A stretch of 35,777 nt of DNA from a virus (Duplodnaviria > Heunggongvirae > Uroviricota > Caudoviricetes), in IMG/VR virus record IMGVR_UViG_2778261389_000005, positions 1 through 35,777 of that record; one strand, written 5' to 3'. Shown here piece by piece: positions 2,838 through 16,803 of the stretch. The translations under genes were made by a program, and so were the position numbers. The stretch's first letter is position 1. Each line of letters begins with the position of its first letter. The notes below the pieces were generated by a model. That model did not search any database, was not told where the DNA came from, and saw only the letters and a list, made by a program, of their open reading frames with translations.

Positions 2838-5501
2838 TTATGCCTGAGTACGCAGCGCTTCAAGGCGGCGCAGGTCGAAGTCGTTCAGTTCGTCGGTGTA
2901 GTCTTCGGTGATCGGCGCAGGCCAGCAGTTGGTGTCATAAGCCTTAGCCAGGGCGCGCATGGTTTTCTGATATTCCTCTCGGCCAAGCGCCAGCAGTTCC
3001 TCCGAAGCCTCAATGACCGCAACCCAGTGGTAACCCTCGTCTTTGTTAACGAAGATCCAGAAGAACTGATCAAAGTCAGCGACGCTGCAGTACATGCCCG
3101 CGCTGAGGTGGTAATCGCGGTCGATGATTTCCCGGTGCAGCTTGGCGCGCAGGCCTTCCTGCTTAACGCGGCCCATGCTGATCGTTTTCAGGTCAACGCC
3201 GATACGAACGCCGTTTATTTCAACCTCAAGGTCCGGGCGTACACGGACTTCAAGGCCAGTTTCGTCGTCCATACCGAAGTAACTGGTTTCGACTGAACGG
3301 GAAGGGTGGCGCAGTAGTTTTCCGGCCGATTCATGGTTAAGCAGGGCCTGCTGAATTGCCGTGGCCAGCGCCAACTGCTCACTGGACAGGATGGTTTTCC
3401 CGGCAACGCTATCTCGCCATTCCTGCTCGAACTCATCAGCGAAAATGGCATCCGGATTCACCGCGCGGATCGCCGCCTGCAGTTCCTCTTTCTTGCCTGT
3501 GAGCTTCAGTTGCTCGGCCTTTGGCTTATCCGCATTAAATTCGCGGATGAACGCCTTCATGGAGTCGGTAGTGGTAAATGCTCCCTCCGGAACGCCCGGG
3601 AACACCGCGAACTCTTCGTGAAGCTTTTCCGGTTCCAGTGCCATCGTGTGAGACAGGCTACCGAACGTCAGCGCCTCGCTGCTCTCGCGACGGATTGTCT
3701 TGGTCACGTGGCGACCGTGATAGAACATCAGGCTAACGCGCGCATCTTTCAACTGGGTGCTGCTGATCCCGTTCGCTGCGTGGTAAATGTTGTTCGGCAG
3801 GCCTTCATAGCGGCCCGGTTCGAAATAGGCAGGGTATTCCGGCGTGCTGGCGATTTCCTCCGGTGCTTCGGTGGTCATTTCCGGCTGTGAGTCGTTCGCC
3901 AGCTCCGGCGCCACGGCAGCCAGAACCTCAGCCGGGGTCAGGGAAGCTGTTTGCGGATCAGCTGCATCAGAGCTTTCGCCTGGTGGAACCGTGTTACCAG
4001 TTTCTCCTTCCGCCGGGTCAGTCTCTTCCATCTGCACATCGCTGGTGGTCTCCTCTGTAACCGGTGAACGGTCATCTGTTTGTGGTTGTTTTTCGCTCAT
4101 CAGGCCATCAATGGAGAACATGCCGCCGCCGAGGTTAGCGACCTGAGGCTGGCTATCAGTGGAGGTTGCTTCAATGTTTGCTGGGTGAAGCCTTTCATCA
4201 GCAGCGCGCTGGCGCATCAGATCCACAACAGAAAGCGCAGGTTCAGGTCGTTTTTGTTCACCGGCGTTCAACTCGCCATGAAACTCTTCCAACACTTCGT
4301 CAACCTTCTGCCATGCCGCATCTACCATTTCCTGGGTAACTACTTCCTGCTTATGCTCGCTATTGCCATAAATAGGCAGCAACTCAGTCGCAGCATTAAA
4401 TTCAGCCGTCATCGTCTGGTTTACGAACTCCAGATGAGCAACCGGCGTTAGGTGGATATTCTCAGGCGCGATGCGCACCAGGTTGAAGATGGCCGCGCGG
4501 TTAACAGCCAGAACGCCGGGCTGGTTGCGCAGGATTTTGCTCCATGATTTCCATGGTTCTTCTTTGTTCGCGACAATCTCCTTGGCGCGGCGGTGGATGC
4601 TGCCCGGGATTTCCAGATGGTTGAAGTCCATAGGCAGAAGGGCACATGCAATCTCTAAATCGAGAGTGTCAAGGGTATGGTATGCATCAGGTCCACGGTC
4701 AGTGACATAACCGCCGTTGGCATTGGTTCCGGAATCAGTACGCTGAACACTACTGATGTGATTACCGGCAGCCCATTCACGCGCCAGGATGCCACGGTCA
4801 ATGTAATCAGTCGCCGCCCACATTCTGGTGAAACGGAGTACCAGCGCGAGTTCGTGACGCTTGTCCTGGCTGAACACTTTGCGAATGGCATCGGTGTAGC
4901 GCCACAGGTCTTTGGTGTCGTAACCCTTCACTTCCGGGCAGTTCTCAGCAGCTAACAGCAAGTTCTGGACGTAACTGTTATCAGTGTCCATCTCCAGCGC
5001 GCCGATAGCTTCGTACTCTTCGCGGGTTACGTGGTGGCGCAGTTCGTCGGCGGTGAACTGGGAAAGCAGTTGCTTACGAAACGGCATCTGCACTACCGGG
5101 TAGAGGGTTGAGTCGTCGTCGTGTTCGTCCAGCGTGATGCCAGCGGTTTCTGGCAGCGTTGACTCAGTAGTTATGTGACTATCAACGGTCTGAGCCGTTT
5201 TCTCGTCAGAGTTTTCAGCTGTGACTTTTGGCAGCCAGGTGCGGTCATCGTTCTGCAGTTCGTAGCGTTCGCACCAGGTGTAATCCACTGCGCCTTCTTC
5301 CGGCAGGTCGTCATATACCGGGAAATCGGTGCGGATTGGTTTGGCATAATCTTTACCGCGGCCAGTTTCTTCAATTCCGGCTTCTTCCAGTGCCACATCG
5401 AGTTGGAGATTGGCGCGCGCTACACTTTTCGCAGTGAACCAAATCACTGCATCTTTCTTGCCAGACTTCTGACTGGCTTTTATCAGATGGAAAAATTCCA
5501 T
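2838..5501 (-). CDS. RecE-like exodeoxyribonuclease VIII
   Basis: 887 aa; long acidic low-complexity N-terminal region and a C-terminal domain with PD-(D/E)XK-like motifs (RPDLEV, GVDLKT); paired with the annealing protein. Confidence 0.65.
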   Translation of the reverse strand: MEFFHLIKASQKSGKKDAVIWFTAKSVARANLQLDVALEEAGIEETGRGKDYAKPIRTDFPVYDDLPEEGAVDYTWCERYELQNDDRTWLPKVTAENSDEKTAQTVDSHITTESTLPETAGITLDEHDDDSTLYPVVQMPFRKQLLSQFTADELRHHVTREEYEAIGALEMDTDNSYVQNLLLAAENCPEVKGYDTKDLWRYTDAIRKVFSQDKRHELALVLRFTRMWAATDYIDRGILAREWAAGNHISSVQRTDSGTNANGGYVTDRGPDAYHTLDTLDLEIACALLPMDFNHLEIPGSIHRRAKEIVANKEEPWKSWSKILRNQPGVLAVNRAAIFNLVRIAPENIHLTPVAHLEFVNQTMTAEFNAATELLPIYGNSEHKQEVVTQEMVDAAWQKVDEVLEEFHGELNAGEQKRPEPALSVVDLMRQRAADERLHPANIEATSTDSQPQVANLGGGMFSIDGLMSEKQPQTDDRSPVTEETTSDVQMEETDPAEGETGNTVPPGESSDAADPQTASLTPAEVLAAVAPELANDSQPEMTTEAPEEIASTPEYPAYFEPGRYEGLPNNIYHAANGISSTQLKDARVSLMFYHGRHVTKTIRRESSEALTFGSLSHTMALEPEKLHEEFAVFPGVPEGAFTTTDSMKAFIREFNADKPKAEQLKLTGKKEELQAAIRAVNPDAIFADEFEQEWRDSVAGKTILSSEQLALATAIQQALLNHESAGKLLRHPSRSVETSYFGMDDETGLEVRVRPDLEVEINGVRIGVDLKTISMGRVKQEGLRAKLHREIIDRDYHLSAGMYCSVADFDQFFWIFVNKDEGYHWVAVIEASEELLALGREEYQKTMRALAKAYDTNCWPAPITEDYTDELNDFDLRRLEALRTQA

Positions 5502-6173: not shown

Positions 6174-6206
6174 CACCTGTCCTTAAAGTGTTTTGGCAAC
6201 TCTCCG

Positions 6207-6413
6207 TTAATGGCTGAGGCCATTCCCCAGACCGTTCAGATAAACTTCAACCAGCAAATCCTTGGTGTAAGTCATTTCTACGCCGCGATGCAGATACAAA
6301 CGTCCGCGAGCGTTAGCTGATGCCGTCCAGGTTGAGTCTTTGTGTTTGACGAGCATCCCCGGCTGAACTGCGCCGCGGTTTACCGTCTGTGTACCGTAGT
6401 GCTGATGAACCAT
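6207..6413 (-). CDS. Hypothetical small protein
   Basis: 68-aa ORF; GGAG 4 nt upstream of ATG; same operon orientation. Confidence 0.4.
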   Translation of the reverse strand: MVHQHYGTQTVNRGAVQPGMLVKHKDSTWTASANARGRLYLHRGVEMTYTKDLLVEVYLNGLGNGLSH

Positions 6414-6803
6414 GATGTTCTCCAGTTTTCTGAGTGAACTTCGCTAGTGGCGCCGTGATGCTGATCTTCACAGTTGAGCGTTTTAACTCTGCAGTTCACC
6501 ACCGCGAAGCTCACTCTGTGCTTTGCCCTTGTCGCCAGGCTGGCGGAACGTTTCAAACCTACTGCGCGTTAATCTCACCACCTCATTCCGGTCTTCGTAT
6601 GCCCCGGACGGCTTCTTCGTGGGCGTCCTGCCTAGGTGGTTGTGTTGATGGAGTAAGTAAAACACCGCTTTACCATTAAGTCAAGTAATGCAGATTAAAA
6701 AGGTAAAGCATAGCTGTATGTTGGGCGAAATTTATCCAGATTAGAGATGATTGCATCAACTAAAAGTGTGTATGATGAAAAAAAACATCATTGAGGGTGG
6801 GAT

Positions 6804-6998
6804 ATGGAAAAGTTCTACGTGGGTTACAACGATGTATGTCAGGCGGTAGGTAGAGCGACGCTGAATCTGATATCACATGGAGACGCGCCCACTACTGAGG
6901 CGATCATTTCAATGCTGGAGTCGCTGGGGGATATTGAGCAGAACGATTTTTGGCGACAGGTGTTCAGGTTTGCTGCTGAGGAAGTGCGAAAAGGGTAG
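6804..6998 (+). CDS. Hypothetical small protein, opposite strand to surrounding early genes
   Basis: 64-aa ORF; GAGGGTGGG RBS before ATG; followed by hairpin at 7011-7028. Confidence 0.45.
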   Translation: MEKFYVGYNDVCQAVGRATLNLISHGDAPTTEAIISMLESLGDIEQNDFWRQVFRFAAEEVRKG

Positions 6999-7002
6999 GC
7001 AA

Positions 7003-7028
7003 AAGAAACCCCGGCGCGGTGGCCGGGT
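7003..7028. terminator. Bidirectional rho-independent terminator
   Basis: CCCGGC-GCGGTG-GCCGGG hairpin flanked by A-run upstream and T-rich tract downstream; lies between convergent ORFs. Confidence 0.5.
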
Positions 7029-7034
7029 TGGAGA

Positions 7035-7460
7035 TTATTTTCTAGATGATGTTGGGGACCAAGGTAACGTTATAGTATCTAACACTGTGTTTTTGAACAT
7101 ATTTTCAAAAACTGTTTTTGTACATACATATACATAATTTTCAAAAAACCAAGCATTTTCATTATAAAAATCCTCAGTTACTTCTTCATCGAGGTCACAC
7201 TCAAATGTTAGTGTCAAGGTAGCCTCTGCCTTGAACAATACATCCTCACCATCATCAAAATCTTTTTTATCGCGAGGGAAACCAGTTATCGATGGCTTAA
7301 CTTCAATAAAGAGCCAATTTCCATCTTCATCTTTTTGAGGAACAACGTGATGCTCAGAAAATTTTAAGCTATATTTTCCGCCTTCAGAATTATCACTGTC
7401 GTCGATAAAAAGGGAAGAACCCTCGAGATCAAATCCCTTAAAGCGAATTTTATCAAGCAT
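7035..7460 (-). CDS. Hypothetical acidic protein, third gene of hicAB operon
   Basis: 141 aa from ATG at 7458-7460, overlapping hicB stop by 1 nt (TGATG); ORF-track version starts at TTG 7496; followed by terminator; AT-rich. Confidence 0.45.
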   Translation of the reverse strand: MLDKIRFKGFDLEGSSLFIDDSDNSEGGKYSLKFSEHHVVPQKDEDGNWLFIEVKPSITGFPRDKKDFDDGEDVLFKAEATLTLTFECDLDEEVTEDFYNENAWFFENYVYVCTKTVFENMFKNTVLDTITLPWSPTSSRK

Positions 7461-7933
7461 CAATGTGGCACTCCGTTGTCTACTGAAACTTCCCAATAGG
7501 TCTCTTCTGTACGTCTACGGGATGAGAAGAAAGTAACTTCTCTAACATCCCTCGGTTTTTCAAAGTGGTAGTGAACCTCTTTTTTCCCATTAACTGACTC
7601 ACTGACAGCCTGTTTTACATAATCGTTTAAAGTCATATTCTTAGCTTTAGCAGCTAAATATGCTTTTTTATGCAGGGATTCACCTATCCGGATGTTAAAC
7701 GAACCACTCATTGTCTTATCTGGAGATTTTCCTATCTCTTCACAAGTGGAGAGGTAATCGTCCACGGCCTCCTCAAAGGCTGCACGGAGTTCTGCAACCG
7801 TTGCACCCTCATAAGTGACGAGATCATTTATACATTCGAGTTTTCCATGCATCACCCCATCTTCAAATGAAATGCTGGAGCTACCATAGTAACCTTTGTA
7901 TTTCATCAAGTTATTCATGATCATCAATCTCAT
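7460..7933 (-). CDS. hicB: HicB-family antitoxin
   Basis: Motif MKYKGYYGS...DG..HGKLECINDLVTYEG...EL..AFEEAVDDYL..CEE.G..P.K..SG.FN.R typical of HicB; likely true start at internal Met (7918 or 7906); about 40-aa C-terminal extension. Confidence 0.8.
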   Translation of the reverse strand: MRLMIMNNLMKYKGYYGSSSISFEDGVMHGKLECINDLVTYEGATVAELRAAFEEAVDDYLSTCEEIGKSPDKTMSGSFNIRIGESLHKKAYLAAKAKNMTLNDYVKQAVSESVNGKKEVHYHFEKPRDVREVTFFSSRRRTEETYWEVSVDNGVPH

Positions 7934-8165
7934 CTAACAGCTGTTTAACTTCTTCCAAGACGTACCTTTTGAGGGTGTTTTCAGGATGAGGCTCATGAAA
8001 AATGACCAATCTATCAACACGTTGGTTGTAAAATTTACGGCCAGAACCTCGTTTAGCATTCAAAAGCTTGAAGCCATACTGGTTCATGAGAGTAACGAAC
8101 TCATCCCAAGTAAAATTTTTGGGTAAGCCGTCTAACTTTGACTTTAGCTTTTCCTTTCTTCCCAC
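7911..8165 (-). CDS. hicA: HicA-family toxin (YcfA-like fold), non-canonical
   Basis: 84 aa, GTG start; aligns to HicA pattern (GF.L...RGS..KF....V..HEPHP) but with GSGR in place of the usual GSHH; overlaps hicB. Confidence 0.7.
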   Translation of the reverse strand: MGRKEKLKSKLDGLPKNFTWDEFVTLMNQYGFKLLNAKRGSGRKFYNQRVDRLVIFHEPHPENTLKRYVLEEVKQLLDEIDDHE

Positions 8166-8192
8166 GAAGGATACATCCTCTGTTAAAGGTAG

Positions 8193-8213
8193 TGCAACTG
8201 AAATCTAGTTGCA
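8193..8213. promoter_or_regulatory. Palindrome TGCAACT-N7-AGTTGCA upstream of hicA, candidate operator
   Basis: Perfect 7-bp inverted repeat 28 nt upstream of the hicA start. Confidence 0.35.
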
Positions 8214-8325
8214 AGCTATGCTATCTATAGACAAAATGTTTCATTGTTATATCAGAAGATACCCGATCTGTTTCACCTTCAACTACTATAATTTGTTATA
8301 AGCTATCAACCGGTGGAACTGCGAA

Positions 8326-8424
8326 TTAGCCGCTGGGTGTTGCGTATCCATCGATGATAAACCATGCCATAAACCCCATAGCTACGATGAACACCAAGAT
8401 CGGAAACACTATACCAATTCTCAT
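8326..8424 (-). CDS. Small hydrophobic peptide (32 aa), possible membrane peptide
   Basis: Hand-translated MRIGIVFPILVFIVAMGFMAWFIIDGYATPSG; AGGGA RBS-like sequence upstream; single predicted transmembrane helix. Confidence 0.3.
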   Translation of the reverse strand: MRIGIVFPILVFIVAMGFMAWFIIDGYATPSG

Positions 8425-8469
8425 GATTTTATCCCTGTCTACCCATGCTTCCTGGGCACCAGCGGCTCG

Positions 8470-8862
8470 TTACTCGGCATCGCCCTTAATCCGCCGCCCC
8501 ATATATTTGGCGTACAGATCGTCGAGTTCCTTCAGGCGCAGTGATACCGCCTTAAGAACTCCACCCTGATCCTCTTCGGGGAGTTGACGGAAAAGGCGTA
8601 AAAGCTCTTGCTCATTACTTTTTAATCCATCATTGGGCCCTATATCCTGCCCCAAAACCCAGGCTAAATTCACACCAAGCGCATCAGCTAGCTTAAGTGC
8701 GGAGTTTTTCCCAATAGTTCCCCTTACAAACCAGTTGTTAACCGACTGGGATGTTACGCCACAAATTCTGGCCAGATCTGCTTTTGAGAGATGTTTACTA
8801 TTCGTGATCTCATTGAGTCGTCTGACCTGTGGGTTATCTGATTCGTGTGTATTTTTTCTCAT
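8470..8862 (-). CDS. DicA-like HTH (XRE) repressor, paralog 2
   Basis: N-terminal HTH (LSKADLARICGVTSQSVNNW) and C-terminal LRLFRQLPEEDQ...LRLKELDDLYAKYM; about half identical to the upstream gene; alternative GTG start at 8877. Confidence 0.7.
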   Translation of the reverse strand: MRKNTHESDNPQVRRLNEITNSKHLSKADLARICGVTSQSVNNWFVRGTIGKNSALKLADALGVNLAWVLGQDIGPNDGLKSNEQELLRLFRQLPEEDQGGVLKAVSLRLKELDDLYAKYMGRRIKGDAE

Positions 8863-8881
8863 GTACAAGAGTATCACTTAG

Positions 8882-9265
8882 CTAATCAGCATCGCCCCTG
8901 ATTCTGCGATTCATGTACTTGGCATATAGTTCATCGAGTTCCTTCAGACGCAGGGAGAAGATCCTTATCATATTCTGCTGTTCTTCTTCCGGTAACTGTC
9001 TGTAGAGCTCCAGAATACGTTGTTCATCAGGCTTAAGACCATCCTTCTCTCCAACATCCTCACCAAGTAGCCAGGGGACGGACACCCCTGCAGCGTCAGC
9101 AACCGCTAATGCAGAACTTTTGCTGATTCTTCCTGTTTTGAACCAACTGGAAACAGCTTGCTTACTGACGCCAGCAACCCTGGCCATCTCTGTTTTAGAG
9201 AAACCTTTCCTGTTCAGTTCTGTAAGCCTGGAAATCAGCTCATTTGTCATTGTTTTTTCGCTCAT
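8882..9265 (-). CDS. DicA-like HTH (XRE) repressor, paralog 1, probable CI analogue
   Basis: 127 aa; HTH plus LPEEEQ C-terminal module resembling DicA; divergent from cro-like gene across operator region. Confidence 0.75.
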   Translation of the reverse strand: MSEKTMTNELISRLTELNRKGFSKTEMARVAGVSKQAVSSWFKTGRISKSSALAVADAAGVSVPWLLGEDVGEKDGLKPDEQRILELYRQLPEEEQQNMIRIFSLRLKELDELYAKYMNRRIRGDAD

Positions 9266-9363
9266 TTCATTAGTGTAAATGATCGCTTTACTGTCAGGTA
9301 GGCATTCATGGTTTGACTTTTATAGTAAAATGATGCTTTACTTTTGCCATCTAAGGAGGTCCT
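9266..9363. promoter_or_regulatory. Immunity-region divergent promoter/operator with two related palindromic sites
   Basis: GTAAA-TGATCGC-TTTAC at 9275-9291 and GTAAA-ATGATGC-TTTAC at 9325-9341; TTGACT -35-like hexamer at 9313-9318. Confidence 0.5.
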
Positions 9364-9588
9364 ATGACTGGTATTGAGAAAGCTATTCAAAAGTTCGGCA
9401 CAGGTGCGGCACTCGGAAGAGCGCTTGGATTTTCAAAAATGACAATTTCCAACTGGAAAAAAACTGGCATTCCGCCCGATCACATTCTCTCTGTTTTTGA
9501 GCTTACGGGGGTCACACCGCATGAGTTGCGGCCTGACTTATATCCAAATCCAACCGATGCCTTACCAGTGCAAGAAACGAGGACGTAA
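9364..9588 (+). CDS. Cro/YdaS-like HTH regulator
   Basis: 74 aa; HTH and GVTPHELRPDLYP segment resembling Rac prophage YdaS; AGGAGG RBS. Confidence 0.7.
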   Translation: MTGIEKAIQKFGTGAALGRALGFSKMTISNWKKTGIPPDHILSVFELTGVTPHELRPDLYPNPTDALPVQETRT

Positions 9589-9590
9589 AC

Positions 9591-10130
9591 GTGCAATCAC
9601 TATCACTTCATCAAAATAGCGGATATCAACCGGCTGCGATGATAAATCGCAATCAACCTGTCTCGGTAGATAAACATGACCAGATCCGCGATGCCGTTCG
9701 TGCGTGGGCGGGTGTAGATGGTCAGGATGTCGTTTCTGCTCTGATCATCGAAGAGTACCAGGCTCAAGGGGGAGACGAGATCACTTTCCCTGATGACCTC
9801 AGCCGACAGCGTCAGAAGCTTTTCCGCTTCCTGGATAACCATTTCAACAGCGAACGGTACCGTGAGAACGTTCGCCAGCTGACTCCGGCAATCCTGGCGG
9901 TCCTGCCGATTGAATACCGCAACCGTCTGCTACCAGAAGACAACGTTATGGCCCGCCTGGCTCGGCTGGAGAAAGAAACCAGCGAAGCGAAGATTGCCGT
10001 CGCAATGGATGCGCCACGCCATCAAAAGCTGAAAGAGTTGAGCGAGGGGATCGTGGAGATGTATCGCGTTGACCCTGGGTTAACCGGTCCACTGATGGAG
10101 ATGGTGCAGATGATGCTGGGGGCTATATGA
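9591..10130 (+). CDS. YdaT-like protein (cII-position regulator/toxin-like)
   Basis: 179 aa; LTPAILAVLPIEYRNRLL resembles Rac YdaT; immediately follows the cro-like gene. Confidence 0.6.
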   Translation: MQSLSLHQNSGYQPAAMINRNQPVSVDKHDQIRDAVRAWAGVDGQDVVSALIIEEYQAQGGDEITFPDDLSRQRQKLFRFLDNHFNSERYRENVRQLTPAILAVLPIEYRNRLLPEDNVMARLARLEKETSEAKIAVAMDAPRHQKLKELSEGIVEMYRVDPGLTGPLMEMVQMMLGAI

Positions 10131-14178: not shown

Positions 14179-14829
14179 ATGAGCGACAACCAGTTAGCAC
14201 CTTGTTGGGAATTTCAGCCTTACCTTGCTGAAAGCAATGTTCGTCAGTTGTTAGCGGAAATTGCTAATGTACTCGAGCAATTGTACTACCACAAACACAC
14301 ACTGGACAGTAACTGGTCCGAAGGTGTAAGGGCTTATGATTGGGTCAGAAATCATTTGATTCAAAGTGAAGGGACACTGCCGGGTCTGGAAATGGTTTCG
14401 AAGGGACTGGATTATGTGGTTGCGTTAAATAAAGTGCCGCTGCAGTTCTCCAAAGATTGCATTAATAACCCGAAGAAGAAGCATCGCCTTCTTCGAAATA
14501 GGGTGGAGCATGAGCAACTTTCATTGTTCGGTGAAACTGAAGCCGAGCAAGATATTACATGGCGGATCATCGCCGAACCATTTTTATCCGATGAAGAAGA
14601 TGGCGAGCTGGAATCAACATTGCCTCGCTGGGAAGTGGCTTTAGTTGGGTTTAACGCATATGGTGCCCAGATCAGTATGGTTTCACACCAATCTACTGCT
14701 TCAGCGCCGCTTATGTCTCTTGATACCAACACTCTTCCGGATGAAGCTGAGATTGGCAAAGCCTCTCTTCGCCGCCGTAAAAAAGATCAAGATTTGGATG
14801 TGAGCAGTAATGGAACATCAAGTGAATGA
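14179..14829 (+). CDS. Uncharacterised protein, partner of HTH-peptidase; candidate toxin/effector
   Basis: 216 aa, no domain recognised by eye; 3' end overlaps the next gene by 20 nt; acidic and basic C-terminal tail. Confidence 0.55.
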   Translation: MSDNQLAPCWEFQPYLAESNVRQLLAEIANVLEQLYYHKHTLDSNWSEGVRAYDWVRNHLIQSEGTLPGLEMVSKGLDYVVALNKVPLQFSKDCINNPKKKHRLLRNRVEHEQLSLFGETEAEQDITWRIIAEPFLSDEEDGELESTLPRWEVALVGFNAYGAQISMVSHQSTASAPLMSLDTNTLPDEAEIGKASLRRRKKDQDLDVSSNGTSSE

Positions 14830-15913
14830 CTTTGCTGAGTATCGTGGGGATAAGCTCAAATTAGCCAGAATGGCTGTTGGGCTCTCCTGCGAAGAGTTAG
14901 CGGAGAAAATTGGTAAAACAAAACAATTCGTTAGCAAATTGGAAAAAGGGTTTAAACCATCAGAACAGTTGTTAGAATTAATCTCATCTGCGCTGATGAT
15001 TAAATCTGATTTCCTATTTACTGAACGAAAATATGCTTTAGAAAGCGATGTTTGCCATTTTCGGAGTAAAAAATCGAGAACCCAAACATTAACCAATAGT
15101 GTTCTGGCAAGGGCGGAGATTCTTAACATTATAATCTCTGCCGTTGAGGGAGAAATCGAGTTTCCTGATGTTTTCATACCTGAGCACCCCGGTGCTGAAT
15201 TGCTGACTCCAAATGATATTGAACGTGTAGCGGAAGACTGCAGAAGAGCATGGAACTTAGGGCTGGGACCTATATCCTCAATGGTCAAACTGGCTGAGAG
15301 TTTGGGGGTTATTGTTGCTCATGTGACAGGAGTGGATGACCGCGTAGATGCTTTTACTGTTCATAACAACAGGCCAGTAATCATCCGAAATAACGTCAAA
15401 AAGAGTATATGCAGATTCCGATCAGATTTAGGTCACGAATTGGGGCACTTGGTTATGCACGAAGGTATAACCACAGGAGATAAAGTGACTGAATCGCAAG
15501 CGGATCGTTTTTCAAGCGCGTTGCTAGTTCCTCGATTGTCCTTTATTAAAGAGTTTCCCCGTATACGAGGAAGACAGTTCGATTGGAACGCCCTAGTTGA
15601 GTTTAAGCTTCGGTGGAAGATTAGTCTTAAAATGTGCATTTACCGAGCAACAACTCTAGGCCTGCTGACGCAGGAGCAGGCAAGAACAGGTTATATGCAT
15701 TTGAACTCTAAAGGATATACGAAAGTTGAACCAGGAGATGAATTTATTCGCCCGGAAGAACCGAGTATGTTAGCTGAGGCGATTGAAATGCTGGATGATG
15801 CAACATGGATGAGCATTCTCATGAAAACTGGTTTAAGCCAGGAGTTGGTTAGGGAGTTATTCTCGGTAAACCGCCCACTGTCAAATCCAAGAAATCTACT
15901 TCAACTGGTTTGA
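14810..15913 (+). CDS. HTH-XRE regulator fused to ImmA/IrrE-family zinc metallopeptidase
   Basis: N-terminal HTH (LKLARMAVGLSCEELAEKIGKTKQFVSKLEKG) and HEXXH motif (HELGHLVMHE) in a COG2856-like domain; 367 aa. Confidence 0.8.
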   Translation: MEHQVNDFAEYRGDKLKLARMAVGLSCEELAEKIGKTKQFVSKLEKGFKPSEQLLELISSALMIKSDFLFTERKYALESDVCHFRSKKSRTQTLTNSVLARAEILNIIISAVEGEIEFPDVFIPEHPGAELLTPNDIERVAEDCRRAWNLGLGPISSMVKLAESLGVIVAHVTGVDDRVDAFTVHNNRPVIIRNNVKKSICRFRSDLGHELGHLVMHEGITTGDKVTESQADRFSSALLVPRLSFIKEFPRIRGRQFDWNALVEFKLRWKISLKMCIYRATTLGLLTQEQARTGYMHLNSKGYTKVEPGDEFIRPEEPSMLAEAIEMLDDATWMSILMKTGLSQELVRELFSVNRPLSNPRNLLQLV

Positions 15914-16165: not shown

Positions 16166-16183
16166 TACTGTATAAAAACACAG
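16166..16183. promoter_or_regulatory. LexA (SOS) box upstream of dinI
   Basis: CTGTATAAAAACACAG matches CTGT-N8-ACAG consensus, about 20 nt before the dinI start. Confidence 0.6.
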
Positions 16184-16203: not shown

Positions 16204-16437
16204 ATGAAAGTTGAATTAACCATTGATCGCATGAAAGAACTTCCTAAAGGCGCAGTACCAGCACTGGAGAAAGAACTGCTTAAGCGCCTGAATGATCACT
16301 ATGACAATTGCAGGCTCACAATCCGCCGTGCCGGGGCCGATGGGTTAAGTGTTTTTGGTGGTGACAAGGACGATAAAAAGAAAATTGAATCAATCCTCCA
16401 GGATACCTGGGAAAGCGCTGACGACTGGTTTTATTAG
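16204..16437 (+). CDS. dinI: DinI-family DNA damage-inducible protein
   Basis: MKVELTIDR...AVPALEKEL...LSVFGGDKDDKKKIESILQDTWESADDWF closely parallels E. coli DinI; alternative ATG at 16192. Confidence 0.8.
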   Translation: MKVELTIDRMKELPKGAVPALEKELLKRLNDHYDNCRLTIRRAGADGLSVFGGDKDDKKKIESILQDTWESADDWFY

Positions 16438-16554: not shown

Positions 16555-16803
16555 GTGAGTGATTCAGCTTTGCAAACGTCAGAAGACAACTGGTATGACA
16601 TTGTAAGAAGGTCTGACGGCTGCGTGGTGTTTAGCTTTCCTTCATCGGGCAGGCATCTAATTTATCGCGTCAATGGCATGGTTTCTATGCGGCCTTTGCT
16701 GGATGATGAAGAGGTCTTTACTCCTAATGGTTTTATGCAGTTTATTCACCGTCTCGGCTACCGGGTAACCCCACCTTCTGATAATATGAAATCAACGGTC
16801 TGA
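16555..16803 (+). CDS. Hypothetical protein
   Basis: 82 aa, GTG start with GGGAGAA RBS. Confidence 0.45.
   Translation: MSDSALQTSEDNWYDIVRRSDGCVVFSFPSSGRHLIYRVNGMVSMRPLLDDEEVFTPNGFMQFIHRLGYRVTPPSDNMKSTV

Follow-up and report, generated by a model that had tools for sequence, protein, structure and literature searches.

Two adjacent genes at positions 8470–9265 of a 35,777-nucleotide (nt) stretch of viral DNA (IMG/VR record IMGVR_UViG_2778261389_000005, positions 1 to 35,777; hereafter the window) encode paralogous phage repressors of two different immunity types. The window belongs to a lambdoid Escherichia coli prophage adjoining kch, as judged from a 99% identical prophage of strain PCP06171. 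On balance, and with moderate confidence, we favor a reading of the sequence in which the upstream repressor, A, runs the prophage and the downstream repressor, B, is a heteroimmune orphan that is retained because it confers cross-immunity to phages of the B immunity group, both repressors answering to one SOS-controlled antirepressor. The locus as a whole is best explained, from its gene content, as the immunity region of a Gifsy/Rac-like lambdoid prophage with non-cleavable, antirepressor-inactivated repressors.

Repressor A (8882–9265, minus strand; 127 amino acids [aa]) is the proximal of the two, and its start at 9265 is fixed by an in-frame stop codon upstream. Repressor B (8470–8862, minus strand; 130 aa) is distal. 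The 19-nt junction between them (8863–8881, minus strand), counted from the stop codon of A to the ATG of B, contains no operator and no clear Shine-Dalgarno sequence. A mechanical list of open reading frames (ORFs) gives B as 135 aa from a GTG at 8877, compared with 130 aa from the ATG at 8862, which is homologous to and aligns with the start of all single-copy relatives. An earlier note, made from the sequence without database searches, had described two adjacent paralogous repressor genes of the same architecture here, and our comparison bore this out. By BLASTP, A and B were 55% identical (77% positives, E=1e-50), a sequence similarity that is far beyond chance and not lower than it appears by eye, and both proteins matched the same two Pfam families, HTH_3 and Phage_CI_repr, above the curated cut-offs, with no match to any other family. 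Neither had a Pfam match to Peptidase_S24, the domain expected of a self-cleaving repressor of the lambda CI/LexA type. The N-terminal helix-turn-helix (HTH) halves were 47.5% identical and the C-terminal halves 63%. A near-identical C-terminal module and different recognition helices, also claimed in the note, were both confirmed: 19 of the last 22 residues (LRLKELDxLYAKYMxRRIxGDA) were identical, as read from the BLASTP alignment, and the recognition helix is SKQAVSSWFKTGRIS in A and TSQSVNNWFVRGTIG in B. The module is not special to the pair, however, because this C-terminal hairpin is conserved throughout the repressor family, A and B included.

We searched for operators by pattern and with a position weight matrix (PWM) for each type, defining A-type operators as GTAAAGC-N5-TTTAC and B-type operators as TAAAC-N5-GTTTA. 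The A-type PWM was built from sites in the rightward operator region (OR) of loci with A's recognition helix, which carry two GTAAAGC-N5-TTTAC sites in OR. Across the window, this PWM recovered exactly OR, with two sites, and the leftward operator region (OL), with one site and a weaker neighbor. One OR operator (GTAAAGCGATCATTTAC, 9274–9292; PWM score 23.8) adjoins the start of A, and the other (GTAAAGCATCATTTTAC, 9324–9342; PWM score 26.4), which contains the inverted repeat AGTAAA/TTTACT, overlaps a PR-like −10 box facing cro. The OL operator (6656–6674; PWM score 23.0) was also found by pattern search; the second, weaker OL operator (6703–6719) is A-type with two mismatches. The same three places were recovered in mEp237, an isolated coliphage that has the same A–B pair (97% identical) as gp39 (A, deposited as “prophage repressor”) and gp38 (B, deposited as “hypothetical protein”).

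B-type operators were found in phages in which B is the sole repressor. All 13 loci with B as a single copy had two TAAAC-N5-GTTTA sites in OR, their 13 genome records each being assigned to a different species, and the B-only phages (that of locus L120, that of E. coli WEM25 and the GfoR phage) had four B-type PWM sites scoring 23–28, two in OR and two in OL. Single-copy B genes begin about 8 nt past a TAGAAT −10 box and, by analogy with cI and paaR2, are probably leaderless. No B-type pattern with one or fewer mismatches occurred in the window, and no B-type site with a PWM score of 8 or more occurred in the complete 44-kb mEp237 genome. The best B-type PWM site in the window (8226–8244, upstream of hicA) scored 13.4, compared with at least 20.4 for every true site. 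Hybrid operators combining an A half and a B half were looked for, and none was found. By operator content, B is an orphan in cis: neither the window nor the complete genome of mEp237 offers it a cognate operator.

Operators and proximal repressors changed together. Aligned OL regions had the same layout in every phage, with operators that matched the phage's own proximal repressor: OL was A-type in the window and mEp237, B-type in WEM25 and of a third type in the prophage of E. coli AR_0118. SEN34 and locus L115 had a fourth operator type, at both OR and OL. This co-variation of OR and OL operators with the proximal repressor extended over the window, mEp237, AR_0118, SEN34, L115 and WEM25. 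Since operator type at OR and OL follows the proximal repressor throughout, and is A-type here, we regard A as the prophage's own immunity repressor.

The AR_0118 prophage (locus L125; positions 3367–3468 and 918–990) has a third proximal type, with the recognition helix TPQAVNG and asymmetric TAAAT-N5-GTTTA operators. These operators are one base off the B type and scored 12.2 and 9.5 with the B-type PWM; judged from this resemblance, B might weakly bind its neighbor's operators in that prophage.

Both repressors belong to a family described in Salmonella. Gifsy repressors are short and uncleaved, and small LexA-controlled antirepressors, encoded after a dinI homologue, inactivate them (Lemire 2011, PMC3121763). 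GfoR (Gifsy-1 of strain 14028) and GfhR (Gifsy-3 and Gifsy-1 of SL1344) have different operators, and the phages are heteroimmune; GfoA inactivates both GfoR and GfhR, as does GfhA; and GfoR is a dimer that forms an A2B2 complex with GfoA (PMC3121763). The same paper places DicA and RacR in the same broad group as the Gifsy repressors and does not mention tandem or paralogous repressors. We identified the GfoR gene exactly, as a 131-aa gene present in ten IMG/VR prophage contigs is matched by both published primers, le144 (5′) and le145 (3′). B falls in the GfoR clade and was 62% identical to GfoR overall and 70% identical in the N-terminal HTH domain. A shared 89% identity with an S. Typhimurium repressor whose gene occupies the Gifsy-1 position and is followed by parA; the helix-turn-helix is identical, and cro and OR of that locus are nearly the same as those of the window. 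We take this repressor before parA to be GfhR from the description in PMC3121763, not from a match to a deposited GfhR sequence, and A would accordingly be of the GfhR (Gifsy-3 or SL1344 Gifsy-1) type.

A and B thus share the properties of the family, being short CI-like HTH proteins homologous to GfoR/GfhR that lack a LexA/S24 self-cleavage domain. A divergent cro and cognate operators at OR and OL accompany A only; B is a family member by sequence and not by regulatory context. The label “DicA-like” in the earlier note was loosely right, although the precise family is that of the Gifsy GfoR/GfhR non-cleavable repressors: the Rac dicA record gave 25.6% identity by tblastn (E=3e-5), a sequence relation that is distant and not one of orthology.

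An AlphaFold2 (AF2) model of A (mean predicted local distance difference test [pLDDT] score 83.5) consisted of a five-helix HTH domain (residues 2–67), a less confident linker and a helical hairpin (residues 79–126), with the chain ending directly after the two-helix hairpin and no S24 domain beyond it. In this model, the C-terminal hairpin could plausibly form the dimer interface and perhaps also the surface contacted by the antirepressor. A sequence search of solved structures matched the 434-repressor HTH alone, and Foldseek matches in the PDB were to the HTH domains of 434, P22 c2 and SinR. Full-length Foldseek matches to SinR, DdrO and others were weak (E above 0.01) and so support the architecture only. 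Orthologues of A are annotated as 155–156 aa in mEp237 and in most Salmonella records, running across the operators (regions compared: L001 4797–4880 and L007 6001–6084). These longer annotations are probably wrong, and the conserved ATG of the 127-aa form is likely the true start, because the window has an in-frame stop within 9266–9319. In current annotation, both genes are called “helix-turn-helix domain-containing protein”, and the start of gene A is wrong in many records.

Further comparison indicated how the pair was assembled. A neighbor-joining tree of 94 distinct sequences contained two deep clades, A and B, to which the upstream and downstream genes, respectively, of every tandem locus belonged. 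Repressors of each clade also occur as the sole repressor in other phages. The WEM25 prophage, located at about 1.78–1.80 Mb of NZ_CP061530.1, has the same backbone as the window (recE ... hicB, hicA, yoaK), with B alone adjoining its own cro. The window and WEM25 are collinear from 6202 to 8870 and again from 9504 on; the intervening positions 8871–9503 of the window, which hold A, OR and the 5′ part of cro, stand in place of 243 bp of B-type OR and cro in WEM25, and the OL operators have been exchanged as well. This collinearity and the replaced segment point to cassette recombination between heteroimmune phages, not local duplication, as the origin of the pair, with an A-type cassette (A, OR and 5′ cro) placed upstream of a resident B. 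The earlier note had seen a duplicated repressor with diverged specificity. Paralogy and divergence held up; duplication in situ did not, the two genes being members of old clades joined by recombination. Recent duplication in situ, or gene conversion between the copies, was ruled out by the placement of A and B in separate old clades. By eye, and unscored, the C-terminal half of the single-copy B gene in L120 seems nearer to A than the window's own B is.

Comparison with related prophages, which the earlier note had proposed as a check on conservation, gave the gene order A then B in every distinct tandem locus examined, in both E. coli and Salmonella, with B intact and not a pseudogene. The junction (GAT TAG-19 nt-ATG) was identical in the window, mEp237, L115, AR_0118 and L010 and near-identical in the Salmonella locus L118. 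Before this conserved junction, the N-terminal half of A came in three specificities (SKQAVSS, TPQSVNG and TPQAVNG), each with matching cro and operators. L012, L137 and SEN34 likewise had A then B, with diverged junctions, and the cargo behind B varied by locus.

Two phages of the lambda-CI type, HK106 (L136, 3570–3610) and mEp234, share the hicAB–yoaK cassette of the window. Homology ends within B, some 40 nt from its 3′ end (window 8470–8509), so that both have a short relic of a B-type gene downstream of cI. This relic suggests that the hicAB–yoaK cassette came from an imm-B phage.

No tandem locus examined had a shortened B, even though the B proteins diverged by up to about 30%, and no truncated, frameshifted or decayed B copy was detected in 135 loci. 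The ratio of nonsynonymous (dN) to synonymous (dS) substitution rates, omega, ranged from 0.02 (L115 versus L118) to 0.19 between tandem B copies. Among these copies, dN was 0.04–0.05 in the N-terminal half versus 0.27–0.29 in the C-terminal half; for the N-terminal (HTH) domain of the window's B versus that of Salmonella L118, dN was 0.054 and dS 0.85. Tandem B also keeps the base-contacting residues of stand-alone B repressors. These substitution patterns indicate an intact B held under purifying selection. Some of that constraint could stem from a time when B was itself a primary repressor, since exchange of B bodies with single-copy B genes has taken place in some cases (L010). Pseudogene status and chance similarity were ruled out as accounts of the pair by the BLASTP E value, the omega range and the lack of decayed copies among the 135 loci.

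A LexA-controlled antirepressor gene lies outside the immunity region, downstream of dinI. A perfect LexA box (CTGTATAAAAACACAG, 16168–16183, plus strand) stands in front of a dinI homologue (16204–16437, plus strand; annotated as DinI family in relatives), which is followed by an 82-aa ORF with a GTG start (16555–16803, plus strand) that is, by homology, a GfoA/GfhA-type antirepressor. Its small size, its non-ATG start and its place after dinI all agree with what has been published for such antirepressors (PMC3121763). The ORF is 91% identical to a Salmonella ORF located between dinI and a DUF1367 gene, and the N-terminus of the Salmonella ORF matches the cloning primer pp866. The LexA-box 19-mer upstream of dinI is common to the window, mEp237, PCP06171 and WEM25. 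The antirepressor of the window recurs with 100% identity in the WEM25 prophage, so that the identical protein is encoded both beside B alone and in A–B prophages. Because of this, and because GfoA and GfhA are known to be cross-reactive (PMC3121763), a single antirepressor probably lifts both A and B. The antirepressor family corresponds to phrog_340, which is of “unknown function” in PHROGs and a “hypothetical protein” in RefSeq.

We propose a model that combines these observations, in which we infer that B is expressed, binds DNA, confers cross-immunity and is sensitive to the antirepressor. A dimers would bind GTAAAGC-N5-TTTAC at OR (9274–9342) and OL (6656–6719), shutting off the rightward operon with its cro- and cII-like genes and the leftward early operon. 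B, 19 nt downstream, would probably be co-transcribed with A from a promoter resembling that for repressor maintenance (PRM). Since B operators are absent from its own phage, B most likely acts in trans, where it would repress incoming or co-resident phages of the B immunity group and so give the lysogen a second immunity. DNA damage would then lead to LexA cleavage and switch on dinI and the 82-aa antirepressor, with the probable inactivation of both A and B. Dual immunity, one of two functions that the earlier note had offered for the pair, fits the evidence.

We would give even chances to a broader proposal, that such immunity stacking is a heritable strategy. On gaining a new cassette, a phage would retain the earlier repressor gene as an orphan within the PRM operon. 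The promoters of the phage would then escape repression by its former kin, its lysogens would still repress those kin and one antirepressor would lift both repressors on SOS induction. The conserved A–junction–B backbone, with at least three A specificities, would then be a platform for swapping the primary immunity while the second stays fixed.

Several observations weigh against the cross-immunity model. Neither a Shine-Dalgarno sequence nor an own promoter was recognizable for B when the junction was read and scanned; the promoter scan returned no convincing PRM and no internal promoter for B. The recognition-helix N-cap is T in place of S in most tandem B copies, which could mean a shifted specificity. 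The weak B-like site at 8226–8244, whose score about 4% of simulated windows reach, is also unfavorable. A–B heterodimers formed via the shared C-terminal hairpin could complicate any model with two immunities. Moreover, the arrangement is rare. The tandem junction occurred in 4 of 5426 complete E. coli genomes, and a single B in 11; among the 80 best IMG/VR loci, a sample skewed to A, there were 3 tandem pairs, compared with 0 in 25 species-representative genomes; mEp237 and SEN34 were the only isolated phages with two copies. Such rarity counts against a benefit from B, because a strong advantage might be expected to spread further.

Other roles for B have to be set against these data. B could tune the prophage's own switch, either by soaking up the shared antirepressor, which would raise the SOS induction threshold, or by forming A–B heterodimers, which would lower the amount of active A. 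Such tuning could draw on a C-terminal module that is nearly identical in A, B and the whole family; on the AF2 hairpin at 79–126, which lies past a flexible linker in a SinR/DdrO-like architecture, though the fold matches are weak; and on the use of one antirepressor type for both clades, with dimeric GfoR held in an A2B2 complex by GfoA (PMC3121763). An intact DNA-binding domain would not be required for tuning; in B, however, the HTH half is better conserved by dN than the C-terminal half and keeps the contacts of stand-alone B repressors, and hybrid operators did not turn up. Antirepressor titration would in any case be a side effect of any second repressor and is compatible with cross-immunity. 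We consider tuning of the own switch unlikely as the reason for B's presence. It also seems improbable to us that B is a selectively neutral relic, doing nothing useful and simply carried along, either during replacement of OR and cro in an imm-B phage by an A-type cassette or during capture of the hicAB block. In favor of a relic, WEM25, with the same backbone and B alone, differs from the window by the replaced 8871–9503 segment and the OL operators; HK106 and mEp234, which took the hicAB block together with only about 40 nt of the B 3′ end, demonstrate that such recombination occurs; and the tandem arrangement is rare. A gene under no selection is hard to reconcile, however, with full-length B in every distinct tandem locus examined, with omega values of 0.02–0.19 and no broken copies in 135 loci, and with an A–B unit that persists while cargo and A specificity change.

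Control of the adjoining cargo (yoaK, hicAB) by a dedicated B is a reading to which we attach very little probability. B lies directly upstream of this cargo, and the weak B-like site (TATAGACAAAATGTTTCAT, 8226–8244) falls between yoaK and hicA, with a score that about one in 25 simulated windows attains; that score is nonetheless well below those of true sites. Control of the hic module by the pair, the other function offered in the earlier note, is unlikely on gene content. The tandem A–B units of mEp237, L115, L118 and SEN34 have no hicAB, and HK106 and mEp234 carry the cassette, the B-like site and a nearby palindrome behind a lambda-type CI, without a B gene. This palindrome (TGCAACT-N7-AGTTGCA, 8193–8213) is perfect, lies upstream of hicA beside the B-like site and, like that site, moves with the hicAB cassette. 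We rejected it as a repressor site because it belongs to the mobile cassette and is found also in lambda-CI-type phages; it is more likely a candidate HicB site. Cross-immunity through B stays our preferred reading among the four.

The remaining genes of the region are those of a lambdoid prophage. To the right of A lie a YdaS-family gene, a YdaT-family gene and then replication genes of the O/P type. The YdaS-family gene (9364–9588, plus strand; Pfam YdaS_toxin and P22_Cro) encodes the Cro analogue, which is near-identical to cro of the Salmonella GfhR-type phage and whose N-terminal HTH part belongs to the A-type immunity cassette. The YdaT-family gene (9591–10130, plus strand; Pfam YdaT_toxin) encodes the CII analogue. 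These genes with the Pfam names “YdaS toxin” and “YdaT toxin” sit at the cro and cII positions (9364–10130, plus strand), and experimental work has demonstrated that YdaS is a Cro analogue and argued that YdaT is a CII analogue, neither being a toxin (PMC8630535). Heteroimmune phages share the C-terminal part of this Cro analogue, TGVTPHELRPDLYPNP, where recombination of the immunity cassette had one of its boundaries.

Leftward of B come yoaK, hicA, hicB, a 153-aa ORF and a terminator-like hairpin, followed by leftward early genes (kil-like, ydaE, recE and recT). The yoaK gene encodes a YoaK-family small membrane protein (8326–8424, minus strand; from the RefSeq annotation of the 99% identical prophage) and is cargo downstream of B; yoaK is also found downstream of the single-copy B gene in L120. 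The hicA and hicB toxin–antitoxin cargo occupies 7460–8165 on the minus strand (hicA 8165–7911, hicB 7933–7460; Pfam HicA_toxin and HicB). The 153-aa ORF (7035–7496, minus strand) belongs to phrog_19522, in which no function is assigned, and always comes after hicB in the hicAB cassette. Record PV340539 calls the third gene of the cassette “HicC”, a name that may apply to the 153-aa ORF. The terminator-like hairpin (7010–7027, minus strand) closes the leftward immunity operon before OL, and a 64-aa ORF (6804–6998, plus strand), hypothetical in the annotation of relatives, lies between the 153-aa ORF and OL. Two overlapping genes of the nin region (14179–15913, plus strand) had matches to Rosmer, an anti-phage system in PADLOC, as RmrT (216 aa, E=2e-26) and RmrA (367 aa, an HTH plus an M78 peptidase, E=2e-106). 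This insert is missing from the closely related PCP06171 prophage.

The GfoR/GfhR family was already known; the tandem orphan arrangement may be new. A literature search for a precedent of this arrangement, or for immunity data on mEp237, found none, with sparse coverage of subscription journals. If the cross-immunity model is true, repressor-based superinfection immunity would reach beyond a phage's own immunity group, and a rival group would be excluded at almost no cost. It would also explain asymmetric cross-immunity in lambdoid and Gifsy-like phages and add a simple prophage-encoded defense. Capture of a cassette upstream of an old repressor would be a concrete route of immunity-module turnover, and the crosstalk between Salmonella prophages, in which one antirepressor acts on heteroimmune repressors, would extend from polylysogens to a single genome. 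The hypothesis is directly testable, because mEp237 is an isolated, sequenced E. coli K-12 phage with the same pair.

Several known systems resemble parts of this arrangement. The CP-933P PaaR2–YdaS–YdaT module and the Rac and Qin loci with RacR and DicA likewise have a short CI analogue divergent from YdaS (Cro-like) and YdaT (CII-like), a leaderless-like start of the repressor gene and toxin–antitoxin cargo in the PRM operon (PMC8630535). However, PaaR2, DicA and RacR are distant relatives of A and B (as seen above for Rac DicA), and each locus has a single repressor. P22, with its dual immunity (immC with c2 and immI with mnt, arc and ant), is a temperate phage with more than one repressor gene in which an antirepressor is part of immunity. 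The second P22 region controls the phage's own antirepressor and lies far from the first, whereas B is an adjacent paralogue of A and apparently has no target in its own genome. Lambda rexAB and other genes co-transcribed with cI from PRM have a position like that of B, between cI and OL with expression in the lysogen (probable for B), and the role presumed for B, protection of the lysogen against other phages, is the same. RexAB acts by abortive infection; B, unlike RexAB, would repress the early promoters of an invader, affecting one immunity group without killing the cell.

The closest parallel is the GfoR/GfhR system of Gifsy prophages (PMC3121763). Its repressors are also about 130 aa long, with an HTH and a short helical C-terminal domain and no peptidase domain; A shares GfhR-type operators and cro, and B lies in the GfoR clade; and the LexA box, dinI and small non-ATG antirepressor ORF have the same arrangement. 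A Gifsy prophage, by contrast, has one repressor followed by parA, and the two types meet only in polylysogens. The phage in the window has both types in one operon, the second without operators in cis.

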